Of a DNA stretch of 64,000 bases, positions 3,402-62,013 are shown piece after piece. The stretch is from the IMG/VR virus record IMGVR_UViG_3300027754_000037; one strand, written 5' to 3'. How positions within the stretch are numbered: position 1 is the first letter of the stretch; the number at the start of each line of letters is the position of its first letter. This DNA comes from a virus. Its lineage: Duplodnaviria; Caudoviricetes. A program made the translations under genes and the position numbers. The notes beneath the pieces are model-generated. The model did no database searches, was not told the origin of the DNA, and worked only from the letters and a program-made list of their open reading frames with translations.

Positions 3402-3441
3402 AATTTTCCATTTCTATTAACCCGACCCTATATATTTAGTG

Positions 3442-6000: not shown

Positions 6001-6024
6001 GTTTTATGGTCCTGTAGATAAGGT

Positions 6025-6540
6025 ATGGCAGTACCATTTGTCGATGCTGTGATTCCCGGCGGTCTTCTCAATACCACGAGTACGAGTTCTGCGATCAATC
6101 GTGGAAGTTTAGTTACATTCAATTATCTTTTTCATAAACCGGGACACGATCCTGCTCCGATGGTTTTAATCACAGACATTTGGCCACAGTATATTCGTGG
6201 GATTAATTTACACTATTTAACTTTTCCTGTGATTAAAAAACTTGCTTTTCCTTCACCGGGGAGAAGCGTGTGTGACAGCCCAATTTTTACCTATCAATAT
6301 ATAAAAGGCAACAACTATATAGTTTCATCTTTCCGTCAGTATAAACGCAACGGAATCGAGCGTCTGAAGAAGCTGGATTGTGCGTTTATAGTGAATGCTC
6401 TCGCCGTATCTCGGTCATTTGACCCCAACGAGATAGAAGCGATTCGCAAGTCTGTGCGAGAGCAAATTCGTCGCATGGTTAACCAACCAGCAGCACCCAC
6501 AGGCGAAATGACATTTGGACAGGCTCCACCAACAACATAA
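6025..6540 (+). CDS. DNA end protector protein (T4 gp2-like)
   Basis: LVTFNY...DPAPMVL...GINLHYL motif; located next to tail genes. Confidence 0.7.
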   Translation: MAVPFVDAVIPGGLLNTTSTSSAINRGSLVTFNYLFHKPGHDPAPMVLITDIWPQYIRGINLHYLTFPVIKKLAFPSPGRSVCDSPIFTYQYIKGNNYIVSSFRQYKRNGIERLKKLDCAFIVNALAVSRSFDPNEIEAIRKSVREQIRRMVNQPAAPTGEMTFGQAPPTT

Positions 6541-6609
6541 TTGTCGATAGGAGTCCTAAATATGTCAACTAATTTCTCATATAAAAATAAGTCGAAATCA
6601 TAGGATATC

Positions 6610-9600
6610 ATGGCAGACAATGTAGGTCGTAGCATAGACGCACTAAATTTGACAATAGGTCAATTAAAAGACTTGTTAAATACGAAGTGTAGCACTCCCA
6701 CGCCTATGGGTGGAGGCAGTTCTGGAAGTTTAGGAGAATTAGCTCAAGTTCTAGAGAAATTTACCAAAGATTTTAAAAAGGAAATGGAAGATCAAACCAA
6801 ACATCTAAAAGATGTCTTGGGCGCAAAATCAAGCGTAGATGGTAAAAGGGCCGCAAATAAGAAAACAAAACCAGTTGCTGACAATGCTGACTCTCTCGGA
6901 TCAGATGATTACTTGGATGATGTTAGTGACAATTACAAATTCATGAATGCACTCGAGTCATCTTTACAAAAGAACAAATTAAAGTTTGATAGGCAGTATT
7001 TGGCCACAGCGACCCAAAATATACGCACAAGACATACTGAACTCAGCCATTTAGACGAAAAAGCATTCTTGGCAAAATTAGAAAGTGAAACCTACTATAA
7101 AAAAGCTCTTGCAGATGAAACCTTAGCTCTGAAACAAAATATTAGTGCTGCACGCCAGCTTCGTGATCAGTTTAGCGAAATTCAAAGTATGTTGGGTTCC
7201 TTTGAGCAAAGTCTTGGACTCAAGACCACAGAGACTTTGTTTGGTGGAATAGTTGAACAAGAAATGAAGTTCACTCAGGAAATTCGTGCCACAGCATACG
7301 AGACAGCAGGTGCTACCAAGGAAGCTCGTGGACTTCAAAGAGCATTCGAGGATATTGGCAAGTCTGTAGCACAGACTGGTGTCAACAGAACTGAATTCCA
7401 AAAATCTTATCAGCAAGCTCTGCGAAGCGGTGTCAAAGACCTTAAGCAGGCAGGCAATCTCACCACAGCGCAACTGAATACCGAAAAACAGTTGGGGATG
7501 GAAGCAGGTTCTTTGCAAGACACATTCCAAGATTTGGCGATGTCTGGTCGCATGAATTCTGGACAGATAGCCGACATGGGTCGTGGCATGAGAGATGTAG
7601 CCAAAGCTACAGGCTTAACAGGCGAAGCTCTTAGAGGGGCTATCGACAGCAGTAAAGAGTTAATTCGTGATTTAAGAAACGCATCACAGTTGACGGCAGC
7701 TTCTGCCAAGAATGTCATCGAAATTTCGGCAAATGCCAAAAAACTTGGAGTTGAATCAGAGGTCAATAATTTGATGAAAGGTTTGGTTTCATCGAATAAT
7801 CTTATCCTTGATGCCTCGAACGAAACAAGAACATTGATTCTTCAAGCTGCCAGCAAAGTAGGCAGAGTTGAAGATGCTATGAATGGCACAATAACAAGAT
7901 CAAAGGAAGGCATCAAAGACTTGGCCAAGGGTATGGAGAAAATCCTTAAAGATTTTGGAGTCAATGGTGTTGAAGAAATCGACAATCTTTCAGACACAGC
8001 AAAAAGAGATTTAAATCTTAGAATCAAAGCTGTTTATGGTATGGAGCTTGGACAATTTAGATCAACTCTTGAAAGTATGAAGGAAAGCGGTAAGGGTCTG
8101 GGAGACAGACTGGAAGACATCAATAAAAAACTGCAACAAAATGCAACAACTGAAGAAAAAAAGGTATTGATGGAGCAGCAACGCCAGTTGAAAACATCCA
8201 AGCAATTAGAGGTTTTGACTGCGTTAGATGAAGCTGCCAAGGGTGCTAAGGACATGGGTCAAGCCCTGTCTAAATTTGGAGATCGCAAAAAAGACTTTGA
8301 AAAAGACATGCAAGCCTTGGGCACTTCTTGGACAAGCGAAACCCAAGTTGCTAGAGATGCGATCAAGGGATCTTTGGAAAGCGTTAATGAAGGTCTCAAG
8401 AAAGCTGGCAAGGAAGAGATCAAGATCAGCAGCGACGAAATTGAAAAAGCCATCAAAGACCCGACTGCTCTGCGTGAATTGACTGCCAAGATCACAAAGG
8501 GTGAACAACAGTTGGCAACAGCGCAAAAAGCACAACTTGATCCTGTCACAGAAACAAATCAGAAGCTGACTGAGATTAATGACACTTTGAGAAATATGTC
8601 TCAAAATGTTATCTCTAAACTGTTCAATAGTTTCTTGGGCAAAATAATCATGATAGGAGGTGTTCTTTCTGGTATCGGAGCGGCAGTTATAGGTCTTGGA
8701 GTGACTGGAAAAAATGCTTATGACACGCTCGGTAAGTTAATAAAGGGTGGGCAAGATTTATACGGAGGCAAGCAAGAAAGCTTCGTAAGTAATATCAAAA
8801 AGTATTTTGGAATAGGTGGCAAGAAGAATGCTACTCCTGAAGGTGGAGCGTCTTCTCCAACGGAGGCAGCAGCAGCAGCGGCAGCAGCGGCAGCAGCAAC
8901 AGCGCCTAAGGAAACAGCACCTAAGTCAGCAGAAGCGGTCACCAAGGCTACGACAGAGGGAAAGGGAGGAAGATATGTAAAAATTCTGGAAGAGTCTCTG
9001 AAAGAGCTTAATTCTATTTCAAACACTATGTCGCAATCAAGTCTCTTCCTTCAAAAAATATCAGAATGCATTTGCAGACCCAGAAAAGCAGCGGCAGCGG
9101 GCACCCCACCCGGTGCTGGAGGAACTAGTGCTGATTCTGCTGCTCGAGTAGCCCTCCAGAGAGAACAAAAAACCAATGTCAAAACGGATGCCAAACTCAA
9201 CGAAAAGCAGTTAAAAGAGCAAAATAAAGAAATTAAAAGAGGAAAAAGAGAAGACATAATTCAGAGAGCGGAGACAAAGGGAGCCAAAGCTGCTGCTAAA
9301 GAAAGCAAGGGAGGAAAAGTAGATTGTCCTCCAACAGCAGAAGCAGGTTGTTTAGAACCCAGCGTGATGGAAAATATGGGAGCAGAGATGAAAAAGGCCG
9401 CTCCTGCTATTCTCATGTTTGCTGCTGGAGCACTTTTGTTGGGTATTGCGCTGATGTGGCTTGCCAACAAGTTGCTTGCGGCCTTGAATCTTGATGCTGC
9501 AAAAATTGCAGAGACTGCCGAGTCGTTAATTGTGATTGTCGGAGTAACGGCAGCTATCGCCGCTGCTGCTTATGCAGCGGGCAAAGTCTTGATGTCTGAA

Positions 9601-18317: not shown

Positions 18318-19877
18318 ATGGCAATAAACAACAACTGTCCCTTCGACTTAGCGCCTTATACTCAGTCGCAGGTGATCACTACTCCTAATATTTTTAATTT
18401 AAATTATACAAACCAAGACTTCTGGAGTATGAAGACGAGGTTAATTGAATTTATTCAACAAAAATTCAGCACAGATTTTTCTGATTTTGTCGAATCCTCT
18501 CTTGCCATGATGCTGATTGAAAACTGGTCGTTTTTGGCTGATACTTTAAGCTTCAAAATGGATCAGATAGCCAATGAAATTTTTATAGACACAGTTACTG
18601 AAACAGAGAATGCATTTAGATTGGCCAAGTTGGTGGGTTTCAATCCGCAACCGCCAATTGGAGCCCGTGCTATGTTCACGGCAACTCTTAACAATCCTCT
18701 TAGCTACGATGTGGTTGTCCCAAGCCCATTTCAAATTAAATTACCTGCTGCTGGGGCAGTAGCATATATTGAATTATATCAAGCAGATTCAGAGAATAAT
18801 CCCCTATTCGATGAAGATATCATAATTCCATCTGGAAATATTGTTAACGCCAGCGTCATCGGAATAGAAGGCAGAACAAGAACTTTATCTGCTGGTGGAA
18901 CAGGAGCAGTTGGACAAACTTTGCAACTTGGTACTTCACCAGTAATCTTCGATTCAATCAGAGTTTATGTTGATGGCGTTCTGTGGGACCAAGTTGAATA
19001 CTTCACAGACTCACAACCAAGGCGTGAATATAGAATCGAATATGATAGCAATTATGTCGCTTATATAATATTTGGAAATAATAGAACTGGTCTAATTCCA
19101 AGTATTGGAAGTTCAATAGAAGCGGTTTACCGCACGGGTGGTGGTCCTATCGGCAATATAGTCAGCGGTTCAGTCAATTCTCAGACCGTGATAACCGTAC
19201 CCGGATTGCAATATCCTGTTCCAGTCTCATTTAGAAATTACACAAAAGGTGAGTTTGGATTTTCTGGAGATACGATTGATGATATTCGTTTAAAATTACC
19301 TGCTTGGCAAAGAGCTCAGAATCGTGCTGTAACAGGATTGGATTACAAAACACTAACAGATCAATTTGCAACGCCATACCAAGGACAAATTGGCAAATCT
19401 ACGGCTGTTCTTAGGAATTATGGTTGTGCTGGCAATATTGTCGATTTATATATTTTGGCTTTAGATGGGCAAAGCAATCTTCAACTTGCTTCAGACGACC
19501 TTAAGAATAGCTTGCAGGTTTACATCAACGATAAAAAAATGCTGACAGATTTCGTTTGTATTCGTGATGGTCATGTGCTTTCGGTTGACATGGCGCTTGA
19601 TGTTGTACTTGATCGATTATACAGAAAATTTGAAGATGAAATTAGAACAAAGATACAAAGAAGACTGGATACTTATTTTACTATCCAAAATTGGGAATTT
19701 AATGAAAATCTTAAAGATACCGAAATTGCCAAGGTGATTTCAGACATCAAAGAAATAAGCAGACTTGATATTACTTTCACTACAAACGATCCAAACAACG
19801 GCGGTAATTTGGTTACGACGCAATTTTTCGAGATCATAAGACCAGATGTCACTACTATTGGATTCACATACGAATAA
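18318..19877 (+). CDS. Baseplate wedge subunit gp6/baseplate J-like
   Basis: DFWSMKTRLIEFI...DFVESSLAMMLIE; YRTGGGPIGN; QNRAVTGLDYK. Confidence 0.9.
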   Translation: MAINNNCPFDLAPYTQSQVITTPNIFNLNYTNQDFWSMKTRLIEFIQQKFSTDFSDFVESSLAMMLIENWSFLADTLSFKMDQIANEIFIDTVTETENAFRLAKLVGFNPQPPIGARAMFTATLNNPLSYDVVVPSPFQIKLPAAGAVAYIELYQADSENNPLFDEDIIIPSGNIVNASVIGIEGRTRTLSAGGTGAVGQTLQLGTSPVIFDSIRVYVDGVLWDQVEYFTDSQPRREYRIEYDSNYVAYIIFGNNRTGLIPSIGSSIEAVYRTGGGPIGNIVSGSVNSQTVITVPGLQYPVPVSFRNYTKGEFGFSGDTIDDIRLKLPAWQRAQNRAVTGLDYKTLTDQFATPYQGQIGKSTAVLRNYGCAGNIVDLYILALDGQSNLQLASDDLKNSLQVYINDKKMLTDFVCIRDGHVLSVDMALDVVLDRLYRKFEDEIRTKIQRRLDTYFTIQNWEFNENLKDTEIAKVISDIKEISRLDITFTTNDPNNGGNLVTTQFFEIIRPDVTTIGFTYE

Positions 19878-35280: not shown

Positions 35281-35902
35281 GATTCCACTTCCTGAATATG
35301 TAAAAATCAAAGACAATTATTGCATTGTTTACTTTGGAAATTGCAAAGAATATATCGTGCAACTTCGTTTGCTGCGACCAATCATGGAAAAGACCTTTGC
35401 AGGATTGCAAGTTTATCTAGCCTGCAAAGATGAATATATGTACTTGCTGAACAATGAGTCAAAAACTCTCTCGGCATCGTCTCTCAAGACACAGAAACAA
35501 AAATTCGCTTATATTCGTGAAATTTATACGGAAATCAACAAACATCCAGTTGAAGAACTGATGTTGGAATCTGAAATAACTTTTCAACCAATTTGCAATA
35601 ACATAATCCATCCTGAACTCATTAAGGGGTCGTGCCTGTTGTTAACTACAGCTAATCTTCCGACAAGAAGTCTGAATGCAAATCAAATCACACACGCTTT
35701 GGATTACATCAGAAAACAAGGTTGTCAGGCGCACTTCAATAAAAAAATAGATGATTTTGATTGGGTTGTTGGTGTCGAGAACGAAAATCTTTACGAGGCT
35801 GCGTCTCAGGGCAAAAAAGTTACTCTTATTCCCACAGGATTTGGTGAAAATCTTTTTAAGAAGATGTTTCCTGCTTCTGGAATTCTTCGCATTCCTGCCT
35901 GA
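35279..35902 (+). CDS. Divergent GT-B (family 9 heptosyltransferase-like) protein
   Basis: IVQLRLLRPIMEKTF..., FDWVVGVENENLYEAASQGKKVTLI resembles GT9 vigvDSGplHlAaalgkp. Start reassigned from 35156. Confidence 0.5.
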   Translation: MIPLPEYVKIKDNYCIVYFGNCKEYIVQLRLLRPIMEKTFAGLQVYLACKDEYMYLLNNESKTLSASSLKTQKQKFAYIREIYTEINKHPVEELMLESEITFQPICNNIIHPELIKGSCLLLTTANLPTRSLNANQITHALDYIRKQGCQAHFNKKIDDFDWVVGVENENLYEAASQGKKVTLIPTGFGENLFKKMFPASGILRIPA

Positions 35903-35962
35903 ACTGCATAAATACACTTGTGAGGTAGCAATTTTTGCTTATAAAAAACTCCAAGGAGAAAA

Positions 35963-36541
35963 ATGAGCGTATTTACAGTAAAGTTAAACAACAGCACTCA
36001 AGGTGGCTTGGATATGAATCCCCAATCTTTGGGCCAGTTTACTACAAGCGTCCAGCGCACTATTTTCGTGACTGGACCAAAAAGAATTTATCGCAAACTT
36101 TTCGATGGCGAAACATTCACGGACTGCAATTACTGGAAGAAATTTGCGGTGCCTAATCTTCCCGCCGATCAAGCTTTCATCGAAGTAACTACCGATGATG
36201 GTTCCATTTACAGCGAAGTGGATGAAGAAAATAACTATCCTAAGGTCTATTCTTTGACCGTGGACGATGGATCGGATTTTGTCGATAATGTATGCGATAT
36301 TGTTGGAGATACAGGTTCCACAGCAAATTTTGTACAGATCAACTCCACCAATTCTTCTGGCGGCGATGTGAGAGTAAAACTCAACGGCATGACCGGAGCG
36401 ATTTTTGACCTCAAAGCTGGTGATACTCAAGTTTTCAACTATGGCGACCTTGCCGTAACCAAGTTGGCATTCGACAACTCCAGCGGAACCGATGCCGAAA
36501 TTCAAGTCATCGTATCCGTCAAGAGTTCCTGCCTTAGCTAA
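35963..36541 (+). CDS. Probable abundant virion structural protein
   Basis: Own CATAAATA element (35907-35914), GGAG RBS, beta-rich sequence and its own terminator. Confidence 0.6.
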   Translation: MSVFTVKLNNSTQGGLDMNPQSLGQFTTSVQRTIFVTGPKRIYRKLFDGETFTDCNYWKKFAVPNLPADQAFIEVTTDDGSIYSEVDEENNYPKVYSLTVDDGSDFVDNVCDIVGDTGSTANFVQINSTNSSGGDVRVKLNGMTGAIFDLKAGDTQVFNYGDLAVTKLAFDNSSGTDAEIQVIVSVKSSCLS

Positions 36542-36559
36542 ATTAAAAATCAATTAAAG

Positions 36560-36588
36560 AAACCCAGCCTTTATTGGCTGGGTTTTTT
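36560..36588 (+). terminator. Intrinsic terminator
   Basis: AAACCCAGCC-TTTATT-GGCTGGGTTT followed by a T-tract. Confidence 0.85.
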
Positions 36589-36670
36589 ATTTTGTCGAGA
36601 AAAATAGCGCTATTTTTAATATTGTAGAACTAACTATATTGAATGTGGAGCAAGTATTTCAGGTGTAAAT

Positions 36671-36907
36671 TTGGCAAATTTAATCAGACCAAACAGCGTC
36701 AAAGTTGTGACTCAGGATGGTGAAGTTCAAGTAACTATTGCACTTGAACTTACTATCAACCTGAACGCAAACGGTCTTGATGTATCTGCAAATACACAAG
36801 ATACAAATTATGTCCCTACGGTCAAAAAACCAAAAGAGGACAAGGTTGAGTGGGAAATTCCAGATTTTAGCGCATTTCCCAAGGTGGATTTTGGGAAAAA
36901 AGAGTGA
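36671..36907 (+). CDS. Small hypothetical protein upstream of the actin-like gene
   Basis: 78-aa ORF with a TTG start. Confidence 0.6.
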   Translation: MANLIRPNSVKVVTQDGEVQVTIALELTINLNANGLDVSANTQDTNYVPTVKKPKEDKVEWEIPDFSAFPKVDFGKKE

Positions 36908-36951
36908 TGTGAAATGATTGGTATATACAGCATAAAAAAAGGAGAGTCCAA

Positions 36952-37956
36952 ATGTTAGGTTTCGATTGCGGGACTTACAACTTGGTTTGTTGTTCCAGAG
37001 ACAAAGAAAGAAATTTTTCCTACAAGAGGGAAGTCAATGCCTTCTTGGAGCTTCCTTTGGAAAACCGATTTGTTTTCAACATGATGAAAACCGCTGGTGT
37101 TCCTTTGATTGAAAGGGAAAAAGTAGCTTATGCCCTAGGTGAGGCGGCGGTTAATATGACCTACACCATGAGCGCACTCGAACTTAAGCGCCCTATGATT
37201 CACGGCTGTGTAAATCCCAAGGAAAAAGACGCTTTCCAGATCATGAGCATCATGATGCATAGTTTGATCGACAATGTCAAAAAAGACGGTGAAGTCCTAT
37301 ATTATTGCGTTCCATCCAACGCCATCAATCAAGACACAGACGCAGACTATCACCAAAGAATCCTCGATGCCATTTTCAAGGCGTATAGGAACGAGACTGG
37401 TTACAAGGTTGATGCGCATCCAATCAATGAAGCTCTTGCTTTGGTCTATGCAGAATTGGCTCAAAAAGCATTTACTGGAATCGCCATGTCATTTGGTGGT
37501 GGCATGATCAATGTCTGCTACGCCATGTATGGCAATCCTGCCTTTAAGTTTGCAATCGTGAATTCCGGCGACTGGATTGATCGTCAAGCTGCCAAGGCTA
37601 CTGGCGAAAGTATCAGCTTTATCAATAAAGAAAAAACAAAGATTGATCTTACAAAGCAACCTACAAACCTTGTTGAAAGAGCAATCCACACGCAATACAG
37701 GCTTATGATTGAACACACCGTGACTGGGCTCAAGCAAGGATTCTCAGATGTTACCAAGACCGTCAGAACTGACGCTCCAGTTGATGTCGTAATTGCAGGA
37801 GGCACAAGCTCTCCTAACGGTTTCGGAGAACTGTTTAGGGAGACAATTTCTCAGGCAGACCTACCAATCAAAATTGGCACAATCATTAAACCATCAGACC
37901 CTCTGTACTCTGTAAGCCGTGGGTGCCTTTTGGCAGCAGAAGCTGCTGTTGGATAA
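36952..37956 (+). CDS. Actin-like ATPase (volactin/MreB/MamK superfamily)
   Basis: Phosphate-1 GFDCGTYN, connect-1 PINEALA, phosphate-2 SFGGGMIN, adenosine IAGGTS, connect-2 SRGCLLAA; GGAG RBS. Confidence 0.9.
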   Translation: MLGFDCGTYNLVCCSRDKERNFSYKREVNAFLELPLENRFVFNMMKTAGVPLIEREKVAYALGEAAVNMTYTMSALELKRPMIHGCVNPKEKDAFQIMSIMMHSLIDNVKKDGEVLYYCVPSNAINQDTDADYHQRILDAIFKAYRNETGYKVDAHPINEALALVYAELAQKAFTGIAMSFGGGMINVCYAMYGNPAFKFAIVNSGDWIDRQAAKATGESISFINKEKTKIDLTKQPTNLVERAIHTQYRLMIEHTVTGLKQGFSDVTKTVRTDAPVDVVIAGGTSSPNGFGELFRETISQADLPIKIGTIIKPSDPLYSVSRGCLLAAEAAVG

Positions 37957-37978
37957 CACAAAGAAAGAAGGAAAAAGA

Positions 37979-38437
37979 ATGAAGTGTAATCAAAAAAGCG
38001 TCAGCGACCTAGGGGCTGCTGCATATCTTCTCATGCATGATATAAAAGTCACAGGGAGAAAAAGTAAAGAAATTTATTTTTTACTTAATGCAAATTGCAC
38101 TTCAGAACAGTTTGATCAATTGACTCTTGATTATCTTTCCAGCGAATTTCATAGATTTGATGCCTGCATCATGAGCCTCAAGAAAATCGGTGAATACTCC
38201 TTCCAAGCCAAAAATTTCAGGTTTGTAACCGATCTGGGAGCAGCAGCATATCTGCTCATGCACAAGTACAAAGTGGTTGGCAAAAGAGGTAAATCGATCT
38301 ATTTCGAGGTTGATAACACAGCTTCGGACAGGTTTGATGAGACCGCTCTTGAATACATTTCCAGCGATTTTCACCGTTTCGACTCGTGTCTGATGTCTTT
38401 GAAAAAGATTGGCGAATACATCAGCGAACAATATTGA
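37979..38437 (+). CDS. Tandem two-domain protein (DUF5659-like x2)
   Basis: SDLGAAAYLLMH...IYF...FHRFD twice with a 75-aa (225 nt) period. Confidence 0.65.
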   Translation: MKCNQKSVSDLGAAAYLLMHDIKVTGRKSKEIYFLLNANCTSEQFDQLTLDYLSSEFHRFDACIMSLKKIGEYSFQAKNFRFVTDLGAAAYLLMHKYKVVGKRGKSIYFEVDNTASDRFDETALEYISSDFHRFDSCLMSLKKIGEYISEQY

Positions 38438-38468
38438 AAAAATCAATATATAATCACAAGGAGATTAT

Positions 38469-39950
38469 ATGTTGAGATTTAGAGATTATCGCAACAACTC
38501 GAGGGGCGTTGAGCTCTACGAGGCAGAAGTCGCTTCTGATCCGGCAATAAATGCAGCAATTGAAAAAATTGTTGATGACTGGATCGGTGAATTAAAGAGC
38601 GAACTTCTAAGTGGAGAAGGACTTAAAACACCCGGATTGTGGGATCGTTTCAAAAATTCTCTTGCCAATTTCTGGCATGGTGCCTATAGCGACAAAAATC
38701 CCTACCGTCATAGGAATATGTACGGCAATCTCGGTGCAACTACGGAATCTGTTGACAATAGGCTGTCTCTGGATGAATATAAAATTCTAAGAGAATGCTG
38801 TGATCTGCTCGAAGAGGAAGTCAAAACAGCAGCGCCAGCAACAGACCAGAATTCAAAGCTGAAGCTTGTTCAGATCATTAACAAACACGCCAAAAACTTG
38901 AAAGACAGATTGATCAAGGTTTTGACGGGAGCATATGTTCCTGCTCTAAAAAAATTCCATATGCCTTCTTTGAGCTCCTTCCCCCGAAAGATAGAACCCA
39001 TCACTCCTCCCTCAGATACAGTAGACCCAAGCGCAAAGCCCGACACAGAGGTAGAAAAAGAACCTACTGAAGAACCAAAAGAATTTAGTTACACCGAACC
39101 ACCAACCCAAGGAATTGCATGGGCTTCTTTAAATGCTCGTCAAAAAATGGCTTGGAATAAATATGGTGGTGGTGCAGTATCAAGAAGTGAACGCCATAAA
39201 GGAAAATTCCCGTTGCAAGGAAGATTCCCGTTGCCTTGGATTCTTCGTCTAGGAGATCCTAGAAAAGATATGCTTTCTTTGAATACTTCAAGATCGCTTA
39301 TTCGAGATAAGAGACTCGAACTCGATTCGGATTTGATTAACTCCAAAGAAAAACTAGAATCTCGTGTTGAACATTCCAAGACTATTTTTGCAAATAGGAA
39401 GAAGCGTTCTGCCAAGCCAGATGCAGAAATGCCTTCAGAGCCACTTGCTGACACGCCCTCTCCAGAAAACAAAAAGCGTAAACAGCCTCGTCCAGATGTT
39501 GAAACCCCATCTTCCGATGCTGAAAAAATATCTGCTGATTTAGGTCGCCCAGAAGACTCAGAATCAGAAGCTCCCGATGTTGCTACGACTTCTGATTTCA
39601 GAGATGAATCTGAAGAGACCGAAGAAGATAAAGCAACAAATACGCTAAATCGTCTTGTAACCGACTGGTCTGTTGAAGAAGAAAGAAAAAAATTAATCGA
39701 GACTGCAAGAAAAATGAATCTTGACAATTTAAAGGATGAAATAATTAAAATGCTTCAAGCCCATGTTGATGCAGAGCCAGAAGGCGACAGTAAAACTTAT
39801 CATCAAAATGAATTAGATAAAGTAAAAGTACAAAATATTGGAAAAATTGAGGAATTAGACAAGACAGCACGCCTTCTTCTTGGCATTCTGCCTACTTTTG
39901 AAGCCAGAAAGTATTTTGTCAATAAATTCAGACAATTAGTTCATGGCTGA
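38469..39950 (+). CDS. Hypothetical protein (possible head-packaged protein)
   Basis: 493 aa, GGAG RBS, N-terminus MLRFRDY...LYE, acidic Pro-rich linkers. Confidence 0.75.
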   Translation: MLRFRDYRNNSRGVELYEAEVASDPAINAAIEKIVDDWIGELKSELLSGEGLKTPGLWDRFKNSLANFWHGAYSDKNPYRHRNMYGNLGATTESVDNRLSLDEYKILRECCDLLEEEVKTAAPATDQNSKLKLVQIINKHAKNLKDRLIKVLTGAYVPALKKFHMPSLSSFPRKIEPITPPSDTVDPSAKPDTEVEKEPTEEPKEFSYTEPPTQGIAWASLNARQKMAWNKYGGGAVSRSERHKGKFPLQGRFPLPWILRLGDPRKDMLSLNTSRSLIRDKRLELDSDLINSKEKLESRVEHSKTIFANRKKRSAKPDAEMPSEPLADTPSPENKKRKQPRPDVETPSSDAEKISADLGRPEDSESEAPDVATTSDFRDESEETEEDKATNTLNRLVTDWSVEEERKKLIETARKMNLDNLKDEIIKMLQAHVDAEPEGDSKTYHQNELDKVKVQNIGKIEELDKTARLLLGILPTFEARKYFVNKFRQLVHG

Positions 39951-40351
39951 TTTTTTTGAAGCATTTTCCCCATGTTTTGCTGTGCCTGCTTTTGTAAAGC
40001 AGCAAGCATGGAAGGATCAACAAACTGCATCGGTGGTTGCGCTGCTGGAGCAGGAGCTTGTTGAGGAGCCTTCTTCACCTCTTCAATAATTTTCTGGTAA
40101 TTAGGATCATCTTCAGTAATCATTTGTTCTTCTACGATTCCAACAATGTATTGCATGGAATAAAAGTTTTTACAATTTGTTAAGTGATGTTTCGTGAAAA
40201 CACCATCTTGGTCAATTGCTTCAACAATTCCTGTGAAGAACTCAGCAAATTGTTGGTCAGGAAAACCTCCCTTGTTAACGCCAACCGTTAATATTGTGCA
40301 AATTTTACCCACAAATGTGCTACGAAGATTTTCCAATGATGAAGAAAGCAT
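39941..40351 (-). CDS. Hypothetical protein
   Basis: 136-aa ORF with a Gln/Pro-rich tail. Confidence 0.7.
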   Translation of the reverse strand: MLSSSLENLRSTFVGKICTILTVGVNKGGFPDQQFAEFFTGIVEAIDQDGVFTKHHLTNCKNFYSMQYIVGIVEEQMITEDDPNYQKIIEEVKKAPQQAPAPAAQPPMQFVDPSMLAALQKQAQQNMGKMLQKNQP

Positions 40352-40398
40352 TTTATACCTCGGGACATAAATATTGAGTCATTTTAAAGGAGCGATGG

Positions 40399-40614
40399 AT
40401 GTCTAGCAATTATAGTGAAGTTGCGCCTCCCGGTTGGAGCGGTACTGTCAAGGCCATGAAAAAAAATAAAGAGATCGATAATCCCTACGCTCTCGCATGG
40501 TACATGAAGAACAAAGGCTACAAGCACCATCACAAACCAGAGAAGAAGAAAAAAGACGAGAGCGTTTTTCAGCACAAGTCTTTCATCGAATGGATTAGCG
40601 CCAAATATCGCTGA
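40399..40614 (+). CDS. Small basic hypothetical protein (APPGW...NPYALAWYMK)
   Basis: AAGGAG RBS and CATAAATA at 40366-40373. Confidence 0.7.
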   Translation: MSSNYSEVAPPGWSGTVKAMKKNKEIDNPYALAWYMKNKGYKHHHKPEKKKKDESVFQHKSFIEWISAKYR

Positions 40615-46215: not shown

Positions 46216-48066
46216 TTACCACCCGAACTCTTTGAGTATTTTATGAGCACGCCTCTGTTGAGTCATAACGACCCCAGACATATAGTTTTCATTATCTGGT
46301 GCTAAAATATCTAACTCGCTATCCATTAAAATTTCCTCTGGCCTACCTTCAAGCAATTCTCTTTTTATATCTTCATACACCTGAGCTTTGACTATCGGCA
46401 TAGGCAATGTAGCTTGACCTCCCACGGGCAAATCTCTCAACATAGAATCACGAACAAACAATCCAATGCACATCGCCATGATAGCATCATCGTGCTTGCC
46501 CTTTTGTGCCTGAGCTTTTCTTGCAACCTTATTGAATTCAAAGGTTTGCAACTCGGTCACAAATCTCATGCTATTGATGCGAAGAGTGCCATTCAAAAGT
46601 CTGCTTTGCAAACTTTCCAAATACAAAGAGCGATTTACCTGACCAATTTTTACTCCGGGTTTAGCATTTGCTTTATTTGATTCAAAATAAAGATTGTCAT
46701 ATTGTAAGCTATGCTGCAAAGCACTTAGGACTGCACCTCCGGGACCCATATTCTCTACAACAACTAGAGAATTGTAGTAGTAAATTGCAACTTCTTTTAC
46801 TACCTGAGCAAATTCATAAGGCACAATTATATTGCTGTAAAATTCAGCAACCTGCTCTAGAGTTGCCGTATCAACTATGTGAAATACGCTGCTATCATTA
46901 TTTTCGCCCTGACCTTCAGCGCAGTCGGCACTCAAGATATATTCGTGTCCATCAACTGGTTCTTTCCAAACCCACAAAGCGCCTTTATTTAAATCATCGT
47001 CCAACTGTGAAATACGACCTATTGGATTGCTCCATTTGGCAAACATCTTTCTGCTGGGATTATTGCTCCTACATTGTTCAGTCAAAGATGTGATTACACT
47101 TGTGGGAAAATATGTTTCACCCGAACCTTGAAACTCACGCAAAACCTCTTGACGAAAACCCTTCTCGCCAAGCTGCGCCTTTTGTTCTGCTACCCAATCT
47201 TCATCGTTGTAGTCTGGATGTTGCCAATAATCCAAATCAATAATATTGAAACGATTGTTGCCTTCTCTTGCATCGTGATATGTTTGTTCATACCAGTTTC
47301 CCAAACCATTGACCGTCGAAACCAAGGTGCAAGAACCACCTGTTGACAGGATAGGCCACATAGCCTTCCAATGCTTCTCCATGTCGTCGATGAACGCTGC
47401 TTCATCAACTATAAGAAATGTAACGGACTTACCACGAGCAGCTTCGGGTGAATAAAACTTGCAGACAGAACCAGTATCCGTAAACATTTTCAAGTGGTCG
47501 TTCCACTTGGCATCTTTTCTAGGCTTCAGCCATTCGGGCATGTTTTCACATGATCTGTCAACCATCATGCCAATATCTGTAGCTTCACGGTCGGTCTTTG
47601 AGATCAACATGATCTGCTGATCTAACTGAAACATGCAACGCCACAAACCCCACAACAAAGTAACTGTTGTCAGACCTCCCTGCCGGAATTTAGAAATGAT
47701 GTTGAACCTATTTTTCTCATAATCATGAATGGTTTTTTTCTGATATTTGAATAAAATAAATGGAATCAAACCCCGCATGGGATGCAAAATCTTGACATAC
47801 TTATGACAAAAATATGAAAAACTTTCAGTACACTTGATGATTTCCTTTTTTCTGCGTGCTGTATCATAATTTTCAACGGCATCCATCGGCTCATCTGGAT
47901 CGATTTCAAGCTCACATTTGTTGAATTCGTAGTATCGTGGATCAAATTCATAACGACCAGTATTTGGGTACATGTTTCCACCCAACTGGTAATATTCTTT
48001 CAAAGATTTGAAATTGCCACGCCAAACTGATTCCTTGACGCTTTTAAAAAATGTTGGCTGATCCAC
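46216..48066 (-). CDS. terL: Terminase large subunit (T4 gp17-like)
   Basis: FCHKYVKI.HP, YQ Q-motif, KFRQGGLTT Walker A variant, LIVDEAAF Walker B, STVNG, SADCAEG and HDDAIMA nuclease motifs. The exact start is uncertain. Confidence 0.95.
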   Translation of the reverse strand: MDQPTFFKSVKESVWRGNFKSLKEYYQLGGNMYPNTGRYEFDPRYYEFNKCELEIDPDEPMDAVENYDTARRKKEIIKCTESFSYFCHKYVKILHPMRGLIPFILFKYQKKTIHDYEKNRFNIISKFRQGGLTTVTLLWGLWRCMFQLDQQIMLISKTDREATDIGMMVDRSCENMPEWLKPRKDAKWNDHLKMFTDTGSVCKFYSPEAARGKSVTFLIVDEAAFIDDMEKHWKAMWPILSTGGSCTLVSTVNGLGNWYEQTYHDAREGNNRFNIIDLDYWQHPDYNDEDWVAEQKAQLGEKGFRQEVLREFQGSGETYFPTSVITSLTEQCRSNNPSRKMFAKWSNPIGRISQLDDDLNKGALWVWKEPVDGHEYILSADCAEGQGENNDSSVFHIVDTATLEQVAEFYSNIIVPYEFAQVVKEVAIYYYNSLVVVENMGPGGAVLSALQHSLQYDNLYFESNKANAKPGVKIGQVNRSLYLESLQSRLLNGTLRINSMRFVTELQTFEFNKVARKAQAQKGKHDDAIMAMCIGLFVRDSMLRDLPVGGQATLPMPIVKAQVYEDIKRELLEGRPEEILMDSELDILAPDNENYMSGVVMTQQRRAHKILKEFGW

Positions 48067-58236: not shown

Positions 58237-61200
58237 ATGGCTCCGTTATGGTCTGATTTTTTCAAGCTTTTTTCCTACTCCAGCGAAGCCGATCCGCTCG
58301 CTCGCCGTAAAGATCCCCGTCAATTCAGTTCCGCAGGCATCAGCCAACCAGAAGCTATCGGCGCAGATATCAACAATCCGCAGAATGTAAGCGGAGGACT
58401 CAGCAGCTACCGCCAAACAAATGACATGATTGACACCACTACGCTGTCAAATCGTGCTATGCGTTATAAAGAGTATGAAAGACTTCGTAATGTTCCAGAA
58501 ATCGAAGCTGCCATGACCGTCTTTGCAGACGAATCTTGTGTTGCCGGTAACACTAAAATTGCCACTCCCTTTGGATTTATCACCATCAAGGAGCTCACAG
58601 AAAAAAGAGCCGACGAAAGATTTCTTGTTTATTGCTATGATTTTGAGAAAAAAGACTACACCTTGGGCTGGGCATACTCTCCACGAATCGTAAAGCGTGC
58701 CCCCACCATCACAGTCGTCCTCGATGATGGATCAACATTCACAGCCACAGAAGACCACCGTGTTCTGAAAAAAGACGGTACTTGGTGCGAAACAGGAGAC
58801 CTTGAAGTCGAAGATGAACTCATGCCCTTTTACCGTGTGAAAGCCAGCCAAAATCACACCAGACTGAGAACAGCACAATACCCCAGAATCTACACCAAAA
58901 ATAAAGGCTGGATTCACGAAAGACAATTTGTAGACGACTGGAGAACAGGCAAAATAACTCCAAAAATGCAAGCCGTAAATCTGGGATGTAGACTATACGC
59001 AGATGGACTTAAAACTGTACAAGTCGCTGAAAGACTTGGACACGATTGGAGAACAGTTGGAGAATGGCTCGCACGAGAGGGATTTACTACCAAGGAAATT
59101 AAAAGACTCAATCGATTTGAAAAAGAAAGAAGAATCATAGGCATCGAACCCGGACCAGTTCAGGATGTCTACGACCTCTCCGTCGAAAAACACATGTGCT
59201 TTGCCACCGATAGCGTCATTCTCCACAACTGCCAGAAAGACGAAAATGGCAATATTATCAAAATTACCACGGAAAACCAAGATATAAAAGATGAGATTGA
59301 TTTTCTGCTCATGAACCGCAAAATGCTCAACCTCAACAGAAATGCATGGGTTTGGTTCAAAAATCTCTGCATTTCAGGTGACTATTTTGTTGAACTCGTA
59401 ATCAATCCAGAAAATCCCAAAGAAGGCATATACAGAACCATGCCTCTCCCATGCGAAACAATGTATCGCATCGAAACAGTCAAAGGCAAAATTATTGAAT
59501 ATCAACAAAGCAAAGAAGGACCAGATTATCAAGCCATCGTGCGTGGCTCCGTAAACGATATGACCGATACAGAACTCAACCAAACAACAGCTATACGCTT
59601 TGCACCAAGCCAAATCGTTCACTTCCGAATCGGTGATGATCGCAAAACCTTCTATCCCTACGGCCAATCCCTAATCGAACCAGCCCGTGGACCAGCACAT
59701 AGTCTCAGAATGCTAGAAGATGCTATGGTTGTGTATCGACTTTGCCTTGTTGGCGATACAGTCATAAGTTTACAAAACGGAACAAAAAATATTCGTGATA
59801 TCAAGGTTGGCGACACAGTCCTATCCTACGATTGCGACGGAAAATTGATTCCAACCAAAGTCGTTTGTCATGTTAACAACGGAATTCAAAATGTTTTCTC
59901 AGTCAATAGCAAGCACATTGAAATCGTTGGAACAGCAACACATCCCTTACTCGTTAATCGTCAAGGCGTATTGCAATATGTCGATATTCAAGATTTGATT
60001 CCAAAAACCGACAAGCTCATTTGCGTTACAAGAAATGACAATGTATTGACGCAAATACCCAAGTCTACTAAAGAACCTTGGGCCAAACTTTCCTCAGAAA
60101 TGCGAACCGCATTTAGAAATGGAAATTATGAAAATATTTCCAAACTTCTCAAAAATTGCAAAGTAAAAGATAACAGAGCCAAACAGTTTTTGTATGCCGA
60201 AAGCAAAGCCTTGCCTATCAATTTAGCCAAAAATGTTTGCGATATTTTTGAACTCGATCACTCAAAACTCATCATCACTAAAAAAAGTCAAGTTTATTCT
60301 GAAAAAATCAATCTTCCAAAATTTGTTGATGAAGAATTTGCAAGATTGTTTGGATTCTTGATTGGGGATGGTTCCATTTCAAGAAAATTATGCAGAATTG
60401 TTTTTTCTGCTGGCGAAAAGCAAGAAGTCAATCAAAAGTATGCAGGCCTGCTGCAAAAGTATTTTGGTAAGGTATCATACAACCCAGATAAACGAGGAAA
60501 ATTTGGTAATTACTGCGTCTCATCCGCAAGAGGCGCTGAAATTTTCTTGGAATTGGGCTACATCCCCGGAGCAAAAAACAAAAGAATTCCACAATGGGTG
60601 TTTACATCCAACCCCGAAATTCGCAAAGCTTTTGTAGAAGGAATTAGTGATGCTCATGGTTGCCAAAGAACAACATTCAAGGGAACTTGGTTTTCCACGA
60701 TTGAAATTTGCAACAAAGAACTTGTGAAAGACATCAAAAGCGTTTGGGCATCAATCGGTCTTTCTTCTGGTAAAATTAAAGAAAGACAAAGAAAAGGTGG
60801 TCACGAAATCACCAAAAATAGTTTGATGAAATCTACCACATCACATTCCATAACAATAAGCGAAAAAGAATTGCCTCAGTATGAAAATGTTTGTAGCATC
60901 ACGCCCTGTGGTCAAGAAGAAGTTTATGACATCACGGTAGACAATGAACTACACAATTTCATAGCAAACGGTACACCTACCCATAACACACGGGCACCTG
61001 AAAGAAGGGTTTTTTATATTGATGTTGGCCAATTGCCTCCTTTCAAAGCTGAAGCTTTTATGGACCGCATCAAGGATCAATTCCGCAAAAGAAAAGTCAC
61101 TAGCAACAGCGGAAGTCCCGGAGCAAACCAAGTTGAAGAAAAATGGATGCCTCCAGCACAAGACGAAGACTACTGGTTGCCAATTCGTCCAAATAGCAAC

Positions 61201-62013
61201 ACAAGAATCGATACACTACCCGGTGCTGAAAATCTGGGAGAAATCGATGATGCAGTTTATTTCCGAAATAAACTCCTCACGGCTCTCAACTTTCCCAAGA
61301 ATTACTTCAACAATGAAGACCCCGGCGCTACAAGAATTACCCTCTCAGCACAAGATGTTAAATTTGCTCGCATGATCGAGAGACTTCAAAGCTACTTTGA
61401 AGACGGAATCATGGAAATAGCAGAAAGACACCTTCAACTCAGAGGATACCCAGAAGATAGCTACAAGGACCTCCGTATCAAAATGACCCCTCCAAGCGAT
61501 TGGAGAGAACTCTCAAGAGCAGAAGTTGTAAATGCCCGATACGGCAATGCCGGAACACTCAAAGGCAGTCAGTTAATGTCAGATTTTGACATCATGACAA
61601 AAATCCTCAAATATAACCAAGATGATGCCGACGAAATGCTGGCACGCCTCAAAATCCAAAAGCTTGAAGACCTCAAACTGCAAGTATTGGCCCAAAATCC
61701 ACAACTTCTGGGTGTTGGAATCCCAAGTGCCGAAGGCCAAGACCAAGAACTTGGTGCAGAAGCAGGTGGACCTAACTCTATGCCAGAACCCGGAGGCGAA
61801 GGAACTCCACCTGAAGGAGAACTTCCTCCTGAAGCACCGCCCGAGGGCTTGCCAGTACCATCCGAAGGACCGCCATCAGAAAAGGCTGGTACGGCAGAAC
61901 CAGTCAGCATCGCTGAACCCACAGATGATGATATCAAGAAATATGATCTGGAATTACAAGGTTTCGATATTGAATCCGACCTTGAAGACATCGACTTCAG
62001 CGTGAGGAGCTAA
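58237..62013 (+). CDS. Portal protein (T4 gp20-like) carrying two inteins; mature size about 612 aa
   Basis: LRMLEDAMVVYRL|TRAPERRVFYIDVG, QDEDYWLPIR, GAENLGEIDDAVYFRNKLLTALNFP. Confidence 0.96.
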   Translation: MAPLWSDFFKLFSYSSEADPLARRKDPRQFSSAGISQPEAIGADINNPQNVSGGLSSYRQTNDMIDTTTLSNRAMRYKEYERLRNVPEIEAAMTVFADESCVAGNTKIATPFGFITIKELTEKRADERFLVYCYDFEKKDYTLGWAYSPRIVKRAPTITVVLDDGSTFTATEDHRVLKKDGTWCETGDLEVEDELMPFYRVKASQNHTRLRTAQYPRIYTKNKGWIHERQFVDDWRTGKITPKMQAVNLGCRLYADGLKTVQVAERLGHDWRTVGEWLAREGFTTKEIKRLNRFEKERRIIGIEPGPVQDVYDLSVEKHMCFATDSVILHNCQKDENGNIIKITTENQDIKDEIDFLLMNRKMLNLNRNAWVWFKNLCISGDYFVELVINPENPKEGIYRTMPLPCETMYRIETVKGKIIEYQQSKEGPDYQAIVRGSVNDMTDTELNQTTAIRFAPSQIVHFRIGDDRKTFYPYGQSLIEPARGPAHSLRMLEDAMVVYRLCLVGDTVISLQNGTKNIRDIKVGDTVLSYDCDGKLIPTKVVCHVNNGIQNVFSVNSKHIEIVGTATHPLLVNRQGVLQYVDIQDLIPKTDKLICVTRNDNVLTQIPKSTKEPWAKLSSEMRTAFRNGNYENISKLLKNCKVKDNRAKQFLYAESKALPINLAKNVCDIFELDHSKLIITKKSQVYSEKINLPKFVDEEFARLFGFLIGDGSISRKLCRIVFSAGEKQEVNQKYAGLLQKYFGKVSYNPDKRGKFGNYCVSSARGAEIFLELGYIPGAKNKRIPQWVFTSNPEIRKAFVEGISDAHGCQRTTFKGTWFSTIEICNKELVKDIKSVWASIGLSSGKIKERQRKGGHEITKNSLMKSTTSHSITISEKELPQYENVCSITPCGQEEVYDITVDNELHNFIANGTPTHNTRAPERRVFYIDVGQLPPFKAEAFMDRIKDQFRKRKVTSNSGSPGANQVEEKWMPPAQDEDYWLPIRPNSNTRIDTLPGAENLGEIDDAVYFRNKLLTALNFPKNYFNNEDPGATRITLSAQDVKFARMIERLQSYFEDGIMEIAERHLQLRGYPEDSYKDLRIKMTPPSDWRELSRAEVVNARYGNAGTLKGSQLMSDFDIMTKILKYNQDDADEMLARLKIQKLEDLKLQVLAQNPQLLGVGIPSAEGQDQELGAEAGGPNSMPEPGGEGTPPEGELPPEAPPEGLPVPSEGPPSEKAGTAEPVSIAEPTDDDIKKYDLELQGFDIESDLEDIDFSVRS
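58537..59229 (+). mobile_element. Intein 1 (231 aa) with no intact homing endonuclease; HTH-like insert
   Basis: Starts CVAGNTKI, has a TATEDHRVL block B, ends VYDLSV...ILHN; the +1 residue is Cys. Confidence 0.93.
59743..60987 (+). mobile_element. Intein 2 (415 aa) with a LAGLIDADG homing endonuclease domain
   Basis: Starts CLVGDTVI, TATHPLL block B, LFGFLIGDG and FVEGISDAHG motifs, ends VYDITV...PTHN; the +1 residue is Thr. Confidence 0.95.

Follow-up and report, generated by a model that had tools for sequence, protein, structure and literature searches.

An actin gene of the volactin family in a phage contig

The stretch of DNA analysed here, referred to below as the window, comprises 64,000 nucleotides of the IMG/VR virus record IMGVR_UViG_3300027754_000037 (Caudoviricetes). 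On its plus strand, at 36952–37956, an open reading frame (ORF) running from ATG to stop encodes a predicted volactin-family actin-fold ATPase of 334 amino acids (aa) and 36.9 kDa. It is preceded by a ribosome-binding site that can be read from the sequence (AAGGAGAG, plus strand, 36939–36946), with AAGGAG lying 6 nt before the ATG, and sites of AGGAG type are found at the equivalent position in its relatives. Two small genes, up78 and dn152, lie immediately upstream and downstream of the actin gene, and are considered after the actin itself.

Pfam places the protein in the Volactin family (PF25216) with an E-value of 6.2e-64 and 216.9 bits, against a gathering cut-off of 35, and the match extends over residues 2–329 of the protein and positions 3–321 of the 321 in the profile. 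The Pfam models for MreB (PF06723), ParM, FtsA and Hsp70 gave no match to the window actin at E<=1; a secondary, precomputed PF06723 match is present in a minority of its relatives. PHROGs matched neither the actin nor any of 10 neighbouring genes, and a sequence search of the PDB with the window actin likewise returned nothing.

An AlphaFold2 (AF2) model built on 42 diverse homologues had a mean predicted local distance difference test score (pLDDT) of 95.2 and a predicted template modelling score (pTM) of 0.93. When this model was compared with Swiss-Prot by Foldseek, the best match was VolA of Haloferax volcanii (HVO_2015, D4GU28; template modelling score (TM) 0.91/0.88, 30% identity, E 6e-37), which superposed with a root-mean-square deviation (rmsd) of 2.2 Å over 334 columns. 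The next match was an MreB (TM 0.66, 18% identity, E 6e-15), and further matches in the range of TM 0.62–0.67 were to salactin and then to MamK and eukaryotic actins. Salactin (Q9HSN1, Halobacterium salinarum) is an archaeal dynamic actin that acts in DNA partitioning and has the same overall fold, but at TM 0.67 and 14% identity it belongs to a different family. Cytoskeletal actins stood at the top of the 30 best Swiss-Prot neighbours, which included neither an Hsp70 nor a sugar kinase. The structure search of the PDB found no solved structure from the volactin family, and its top matches were all filament-forming actins (MreB, MamK, BeeR and F-actin; TM 0.60–0.69, 13–18% identity). Thus MreB/Mbl (PF06723) are the best solved structural neighbours and share a filament-forming actin fold with the window protein, but they differ from it in sequence and are structurally much further away than VolA.

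An initial annotation of the window, made from the sequence alone, had recognised volactin in a series of short segments, all of which are present (FDCGTYN, YYCVP, YHQ, PINEALALVYAEL, TGIAMSFGGGMINVC, SGDWIDRQAAKATG, AGGTSSPNGF and PLYSVSRGCLLAA). Its assignment is confirmed by the searches described above, in which Volactin was the sole meaningful Pfam family and VolA the best structural match, and clustering with ordinary MreB or Hsp70 proteins was not seen. We conclude that the gene encodes an actin-like protein of the volactin family.

The nucleotide-binding site is intact

To describe the site we aligned 267 full-length family members to the family hidden Markov model (HMM). The segments listed above coincide with columns that are invariant or nearly so in this alignment. 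These columns comprise D5-x-G7-T8 of phosphate 1, followed by R80-P81, G85 and H134; N159-E160 of connect 1; G176; S180-F-G182-x-G184-M-x-N187 of phosphate 2; and also G206-D207-W-x-D210, K228, Y249, G283-G284-T285 of the adenosine motif and G290-F291. The window protein (P0001 in the alignment) has the family residue at every one of them. The residues of the nucleotide site itself (D-x-G-T, N-E, S-F-G-x-G-M-x-N, G-D-W-x-D and G-G-T) are each found in at least 242 of the 267 members, apart from the weaker columns N159 (222/267) and W208 (230/267) and the Phe of S-F-G, which is variable. Judged from these columns, the active site is intact.

The first residue of phosphate 2 is Asp in actin, MreB and ParM. 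In the window actin it is Ser, and the same is true of 259 of the 267 members, including acidic sequences of halophile type. The statement of the initial annotation that all five actin-fold motifs are present is therefore correct as regards the motifs of this family, with the qualification that phosphate 2 starts with Ser and not Asp throughout. A rewiring of this loop specific to phages was considered and rejected, because the Ser is family-wide.

Replacement of the canonical Asp is what would favour a non-polymerising ATPase, such as an enzyme akin to chaperones or kinases, that shares only the fold with actins. We consider this very unlikely, since halophile-type members carry the same Ser and the founder of the family, VolA, polymerises, and since the top structural neighbours in Swiss-Prot are all cytoskeletal. 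In addition, an identity that stays at 69–88% throughout a deep clade of phages is what proteins making many contacts with themselves typically show.

The actin is the best conserved gene of its neighbourhood

Comparative counts from here on cover 83 related loci unless stated otherwise, with the window protein as the reference. The median identity to the window is 80% for the actin and 76% for dn152, compared with 59% for a nuclease gene, 57% for a 192-aa gene upstream, 55% for a primase gene and 49% for up78. Among the 34 loci that carry all seven shared genes, the actin is the best conserved of the seven in 29. Between the window actin and three relatives at 88% protein identity, the rate of nonsynonymous substitution (dN) is about 0.10 and synonymous sites are saturated; the ratio to the synonymous rate (dN/dS) was taken from three ungapped pairs (L023–L025), other pairs of the same length being out of register and discarded. 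These substitution patterns indicate that the actin is under strong purifying selection.

Several close and distant relatives of phage type are about 700 aa long and carry an intein (Cys1 ... His-Asn/Cys+1) that splits the phosphate-2 loop (..S/CGAGM..). The inteins of phage volactins are approximately 350–390 aa in length and occupy either the phosphate-2 loop (P0121, P0128) or a position before SGDWID (P0132, P0249), which correspond to 37489–37494 and about 37560 of the window, respectively. Essential phage genes are the usual hosts of inteins, which tend to occupy their best conserved sites. The window actin is without an intein, and its +1 position is Phe, not Cys.

The gene belongs to a lineage of very large freshwater phages

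The window derives from a tailed phage, as the initial annotation had held. Genes for a portal protein (58237–62013; phrog_213, 2.4e-67), the large terminase subunit (TerL; 46216–48066, minus strand; phrog_2, 2.5e-41) and a baseplate wedge protein (18318–19877; phrog_219, 7.5e-29) lie on the same contig, and its relatives are huge phages. Directly upstream of the actin block are genes for PKD-domain proteins resembling tail fibres, and directly downstream are those for a Toprim primase and a PD-(D/E)XK nuclease. The earlier description of the actin as standing among assembly genes thus fits the upstream side, with its fibre-like and baseplate genes, but not the downstream side, where the primase and nuclease follow.

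An identical actin protein is encoded by metagenomic contigs of 239–241 kb from one freshwater sample, and nearly identical DNA (contigs at 95–100%) is present in freshwater and freshwater-sediment metagenomes from several other studies. The closest GenBank entries, both from uncultured phages, measure 595 kb (64% identity) and 485 kb (32%), and megablast of 15 kb of the window against GenBank phages found no match. At least 454 viral stretches in IMG/VR encode a relative of the window actin, and in the best 80 of these 454 the protein is 69–88% identical to that of the window; a scan of IMG/VR with another family member, P0130, found no relative. One relative, G001, is 532,729 bp in length and 100% complete by CheckV. 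As the partial genomes scale to a like size, we conclude that the genomes of this lineage are roughly 0.5 Mb.

Two loci assigned to cellular organisms, L005 (JAYVUD010000122.1, a 'Chloracidobacterium' metagenome-assembled genome (MAG)) and L006 (JBGPGB010000129.1, a 'Nitrosotalea' MAG), are short contigs with phage synteny. The order of actin, dn152 and primase is kept in both, and L005 has in addition the 192-aa gene and up78, so that these are probably mis-binned phage DNA. IMG/VR labels three of the relatives, G001, G002 and G004 (the records behind L072, L101 and L095), as 'provirus', and G001 has no tyrosine integrase. On phage genomes of such size the label may be an artefact of the classifier. 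A search of the two complete relatives found no tyrosine integrase.

Place of the window actin in the volactin family

The family has 901 representatives in a protein library clustered at 50%. An approximate tree (FastTree, midpoint-rooted, without a named VolA tip) was built from 152 non-redundant members; in it the window clade is tight and groups with clades at 34–43% identity that include intein-bearing sequences and sequences in a phage context. The acidic halophile-type sequences are distant from it, at 30–35% identity; these tips were recognised by their acidic composition, and one of them, P0193, adjoins a GGDEF/EAL gene and may be bacterial. On this topology, which is not rooted in any real sense, the window clade looks like an old viral branch and not a recent capture from haloarchaea.

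Other members of the family lie in varied surroundings. Locus L105 (GCA_964580675.1), from an acidic proteome, has tandem volactin-family genes of 381 and 517 aa at 6001–8770, near a PAS-GGDEF-EAL gene. In three MAGs of Patescibacteria and Anaerolineae (L008, L013 and L014) the volactin homologue is followed by paired genes starting MA(K/E)..KY(L/I/V)Y(C/G)V, which we take to recall GvpL/GvpF of gas vesicles, and by a gene for an ArsA-like ATPase; upstream lie small winged-helix-like genes, an arrangement unlike that of the phages. Inspection by eye of other 'bacterial' volactin loci revealed phage-like neighbours, namely proteins with sheath-like N-termini (L015, L022) and a ClpP-like protease (L020). 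Some of the family's occurrences in cells may thus be due to prophages.

The actin is the centre of a conserved gene trio

Upstream of the actin, up78 (36671–36907, plus strand) encodes an acidic protein of 78 aa with an isoelectric point (pI) of 4.8. In 79 of the 83 loci the gene immediately before the actin is an up78 homologue, which usually stops 3–20 nt short of the actin start. In the alignment both ends of the protein are conserved, with a beta segment at the N-terminus (VKVVTQDGEVQVTIALELTINLN) and the motif W-E/A-I-P-D-F...K-x-x-F-G-K at the C-terminus, and the linker between them is variable. No Pfam or PHROG family was matched. The predicted complex of actin and up78 scored 0.46, the best of 3 controls scoring 0.00, and the runs agreed in at least 84% of contacts, with a pLDDT for up78 of at least 42. 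The mark used for such predictions is passed by 58 of 80 solved complexes and by 2 of 110 mismatched pairs, and the passes with scores of 0.60 or below comprise just 7 of the 80 solved complexes together with both of the passing mismatches. We regard up78 as a candidate filament-binding partner of the actin.

Downstream, dn152 (37979–38437, plus strand) encodes 152 aa in two tandem domains of about 70 aa, and has a homologue downstream of the actin in 81 of the 83 loci, usually 11–60 nt away. Each domain follows the pattern DLGAAAYLLMH...FHRFD.C.MSLKKIGEY with a beta-alpha-beta-beta-alpha-alpha order, and single-domain versions are present in L001, L095 and L103. The AF2 model (pLDDT 91.9) matches viral clusters of the ESM Atlas, including a DUF5659 representative (TM 0.70 over 65 residues, rmsd 2.0), and the DUF5659 Pfam model was matched by 1 of 19 dn152 members (E 8.5e-4). 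Foldseek against the PDB gave no match at E<=0.001, and by VIA-align the best Z was 5.0, to generic alpha/beta domains, with no convincing match to a solved fold. The Pfam model LidA_Long_CC was near its threshold in 18 of the 19 members, with a best E of 7.8e-8; the window protein scored 26.2 against a cut-off of 26.5.

The trio of up78, actin and dn152 is also found at L103, where the actin is 43% identical to that of the window. L103 stems from another phage, whose genes include those for PKD fibres, ribosomal protein S21, PhoH and gyrase B, and an HMM for dn152 built without L103 recovers the L103 copy at E 2e-15. Occasionally, insertions of 0.6–1.1 kb that bring extra ORFs separate the actin from its partner genes in relatives; that at L005:2897–3598, starting MKCGIYAIKNKVNGKMYIGQS, presumably resembles a GIY-YIG homing endonuclease.

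Beyond dn152 lies dn493 (38469–39950, plus strand), whose product of 493 aa is rich in charged residues. It is present in 72 of the 83 loci at 24–40% identity, is conserved over its N-terminal 160 residues or so only, and matched no Pfam or PHROG family. We treat it as a syntenic follower whose membership of the module is uncertain. Within it, at 39199–39234, is an 18-nt tandem duplication (AAGGAAAATTCCCGTTGC, two copies), one copy of which is missing in the X3 and X5 contigs, a length polymorphism in a charged linker.

Transcription of the actin gene

After the 192-aa gene, at 36557–36588 on the plus strand, is a terminator-like hairpin with a T-run; its stem of 13 bp, 6 of them GC pairs, runs into TTTTTTATTTT. 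It is likely to mark the upstream boundary of the actin transcription unit. Scans of the window for terminators and sigma-70 promoters showed no enrichment over shuffled sequence.

The initial annotation had placed a late-type promoter before the actin. The string on which this was based, GTATATA, is indeed present at 36921, within TGGTATATA (36919–36927, plus strand), but the promoter is not supported by the relatives. The element lies in a 44-nt spacer peculiar to the window phage, TATATA is absent within 60 nt of the actin start in 83 of 83 relatives, and in most of them up78 and the actin are too close together to leave space for a promoter. In run X5, a close variant is without 20 nt of the 44-nt spacer. 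As there is no conserved TATATA and little spacer room, the actin is normally co-transcribed with up78.

Across the window, words of ATATATA type are enriched within 80 nt upstream of genes (6 genes found, 0.41 expected), and the TATATA word may be part of a promoter of this phage. The palindromic TATATA, enriched 20–50 nt before gene starts, occurs at 3429, 34402, 36922, 38447, 48081/48098, 52835, 55415 and 62657, and these sites include those preceding the terminase gene and dn493. In the metatranscriptome X24, two 151-nt contigs of depth 2 cover 36663–36944; the actin ORF is uncovered, and the library is uninformative for it.

No tubulin is detected in the relatives

Jumbo phages of the nucleus-forming type (Chimalliviridae) have the tubulin PhuZ, and the check for it that the initial annotation had proposed was made on relatives. 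Tubulin (PF00091) was found in none of LR756511.1 (595 kb), the complete G001 (533 kb) and four partial genomes (G002–G005), in a search that was positive for 13 of 14 control genomes. Each of these six relatives has exactly one volactin gene. A protein search of the same six with chimallin (phiKZ gp54) gave no match; it had no positive control and is uninformative.

A proposed role in intracellular organisation

Taken together, we think it probable that the window encodes an ATP-binding, filament-forming volactin which works in a three-gene module with up78 and dn152 and serves intracellular organisation for a phage of about 0.5 Mb. In this proposal the volactin would polymerise into filaments during infection, as the archaeal founder does; up78 and dn152 would link the filament with either a cargo or a cellular site; and the filament would position or move replicating DNA or assembling particles, a role that would equal that of PhuZ in other jumbo phages. 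PhuZ is likewise a cytoskeletal NTPase of very large phages, and so a possible functional analogue, but it has the tubulin fold and not that of actin, and the window relatives have no detectable tubulin. Family membership, the intact site, purifying selection and the conserved gene order are established by the analysis, whereas polymerisation, partner binding and the role in the cell, including the trafficking or host-shape control suggested by the initial annotation, are inferred.

VolA forms dynamic filaments in vivo (PMC10869688). It resembles the window actin in belonging to PF25216, in its nearly identical predicted fold, and in the phosphate-2 Ser, the SGDWID motif and AGGTS; it differs in being archaeal, whereas the window actin comes from a bacteriophage and is accompanied by two partner genes specific to phages, neither of which is present at the cellular volactin loci examined. 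VolA, the sole characterised member of the family, acts in rod-to-disk morphogenesis (PMC10869688), and with MreB as the closest solved fold this suggests a host-shape manipulator, in which the phage actin would join or compete with the host morphogenetic machinery, much as MreB gives bacteria their shape, and enlarge or reshape a cell that would need room for virions with about 0.5 Mb of packaged DNA. We hold this to be unlikely, and a role in rod or disk shape is not to be assumed from VolA. The window actin is only distantly related to MreBs (13–18% identity) and has no match to their Pfam model, and the conservation of dedicated partner genes alongside it points to a system complete in itself and not to mimicry of a host protein. 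Moreover, it begins at strand 1 (MLGFDCGT), without an extra N-terminal segment such as the one that gives MreB of Gram-negative bacteria its membrane-binding helix.

Several points weigh against an organising filament with two partners. Polymerisation of the phage member would be an extrapolation from an archaeal protein at 30% identity, and the prediction of the actin–up78 complex is weak. The X24 contigs over up78, which are the sole signal from an RNA library, could be carried-over DNA. The tubulin searches covered relatives and not the full genome of the window phage itself. The trio was not found at the phage-type loci L104, L107–L110 and L007, or at the bacterial loci L008–L022, and so appears to be specific to this branch, being confined among the loci compared to the window clade and one sister clade. 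Finally, neither partner is basic (pI 4.8 for up78 and 6.9 for dn152), neither has a recognisable DNA-binding fold (no ribbon-helix-helix (RHH) or helix-turn-helix (HTH) match), and the region 35900–40400 holds no centromere-like repeat array, with only scattered two-copy matches of 10–29 nt.

The last of these points bear also on a type II, ParM-like partition system, in which the phage would be kept as an extrachromosomal plasmid-prophage or pseudolysogen and one of the small proteins would be a centromere-binding adaptor. The window module shares with ParM/ParR/parC, AlfA/AlfB and AlpC/AlpA an actin-like ATPase beside small dedicated partner genes on a mobile element, and an actin gene followed by a small gene recalls the order parM-parR, alfA-alfB and alpC-alpA (for AlpC, PMC4446434). 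As the two complete relatives have no tyrosine integrase, any lysogeny would have to be non-integrative. Prophage AlpC is, in addition, an example of an actin encoded by a phage that can act in replicating and positioning viral DNA (PMC4446434).

However, the window actin is of another actin family and has one partner upstream and one downstream, its partners lack the basic character and the RHH or HTH match, and it lies between tail and replication genes and not in a maintenance module. With no repeat array near the operon, a mechanism of ParMRC type is not supported in detail. No temperate phage is known among those of about 0.5 Mb with such gene content. We therefore judge partition to be distinctly improbable, and retain the organising filament as the preferred reading.

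A more specific form of this reading can be put forward only tentatively. The freshwater phages of about 0.5 Mb might possess a self-contained actin cytomotive machine, made up of a volactin filament, an adaptor with the WEIPDF peptide and a tandem DUF5659 protein, which would organise viral DNA or particles and would be a counterpart of PhuZ that evolved independently of the nucleus-forming phages.

Phage cytoskeletons have so far been represented mainly by PhuZ tubulin and by a small number of plasmid and prophage actins resembling ParM or AlpC; actin-like proteins of Bacillus pumilus phages are also known, according to a citation in PMC4870245. We found no publication in the searchable literature that describes a volactin-family actin in phages, and, judged by title and abstract, none of the papers listed for volactin concerns viruses. 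In their huge-phage survey, Al-Shayeb et al. refer to tubulin; actin, MreB and ParM go unmentioned there, as they do in a 2021 comparative overview and a 2026 review of jumbo phages. Here an actin family characterised so far in one haloarchaeon only is represented by a single-copy gene under unusually strong constraint, accompanied by two uncharacterised partner proteins, in a clade that is widespread and belongs to the largest phages known. The protein is short, soluble-looking and confidently modelled, so that its polymerisation and its binding of partners are directly testable. If it does polymerise, it would provide a second, independent way to organise a huge viral genome and giant particles within a bacterium, the volactin family would gain its first candidate binding partners in up78 and dn152, and most of the diversity of that family may prove to be viral and bacterial, not archaeal.

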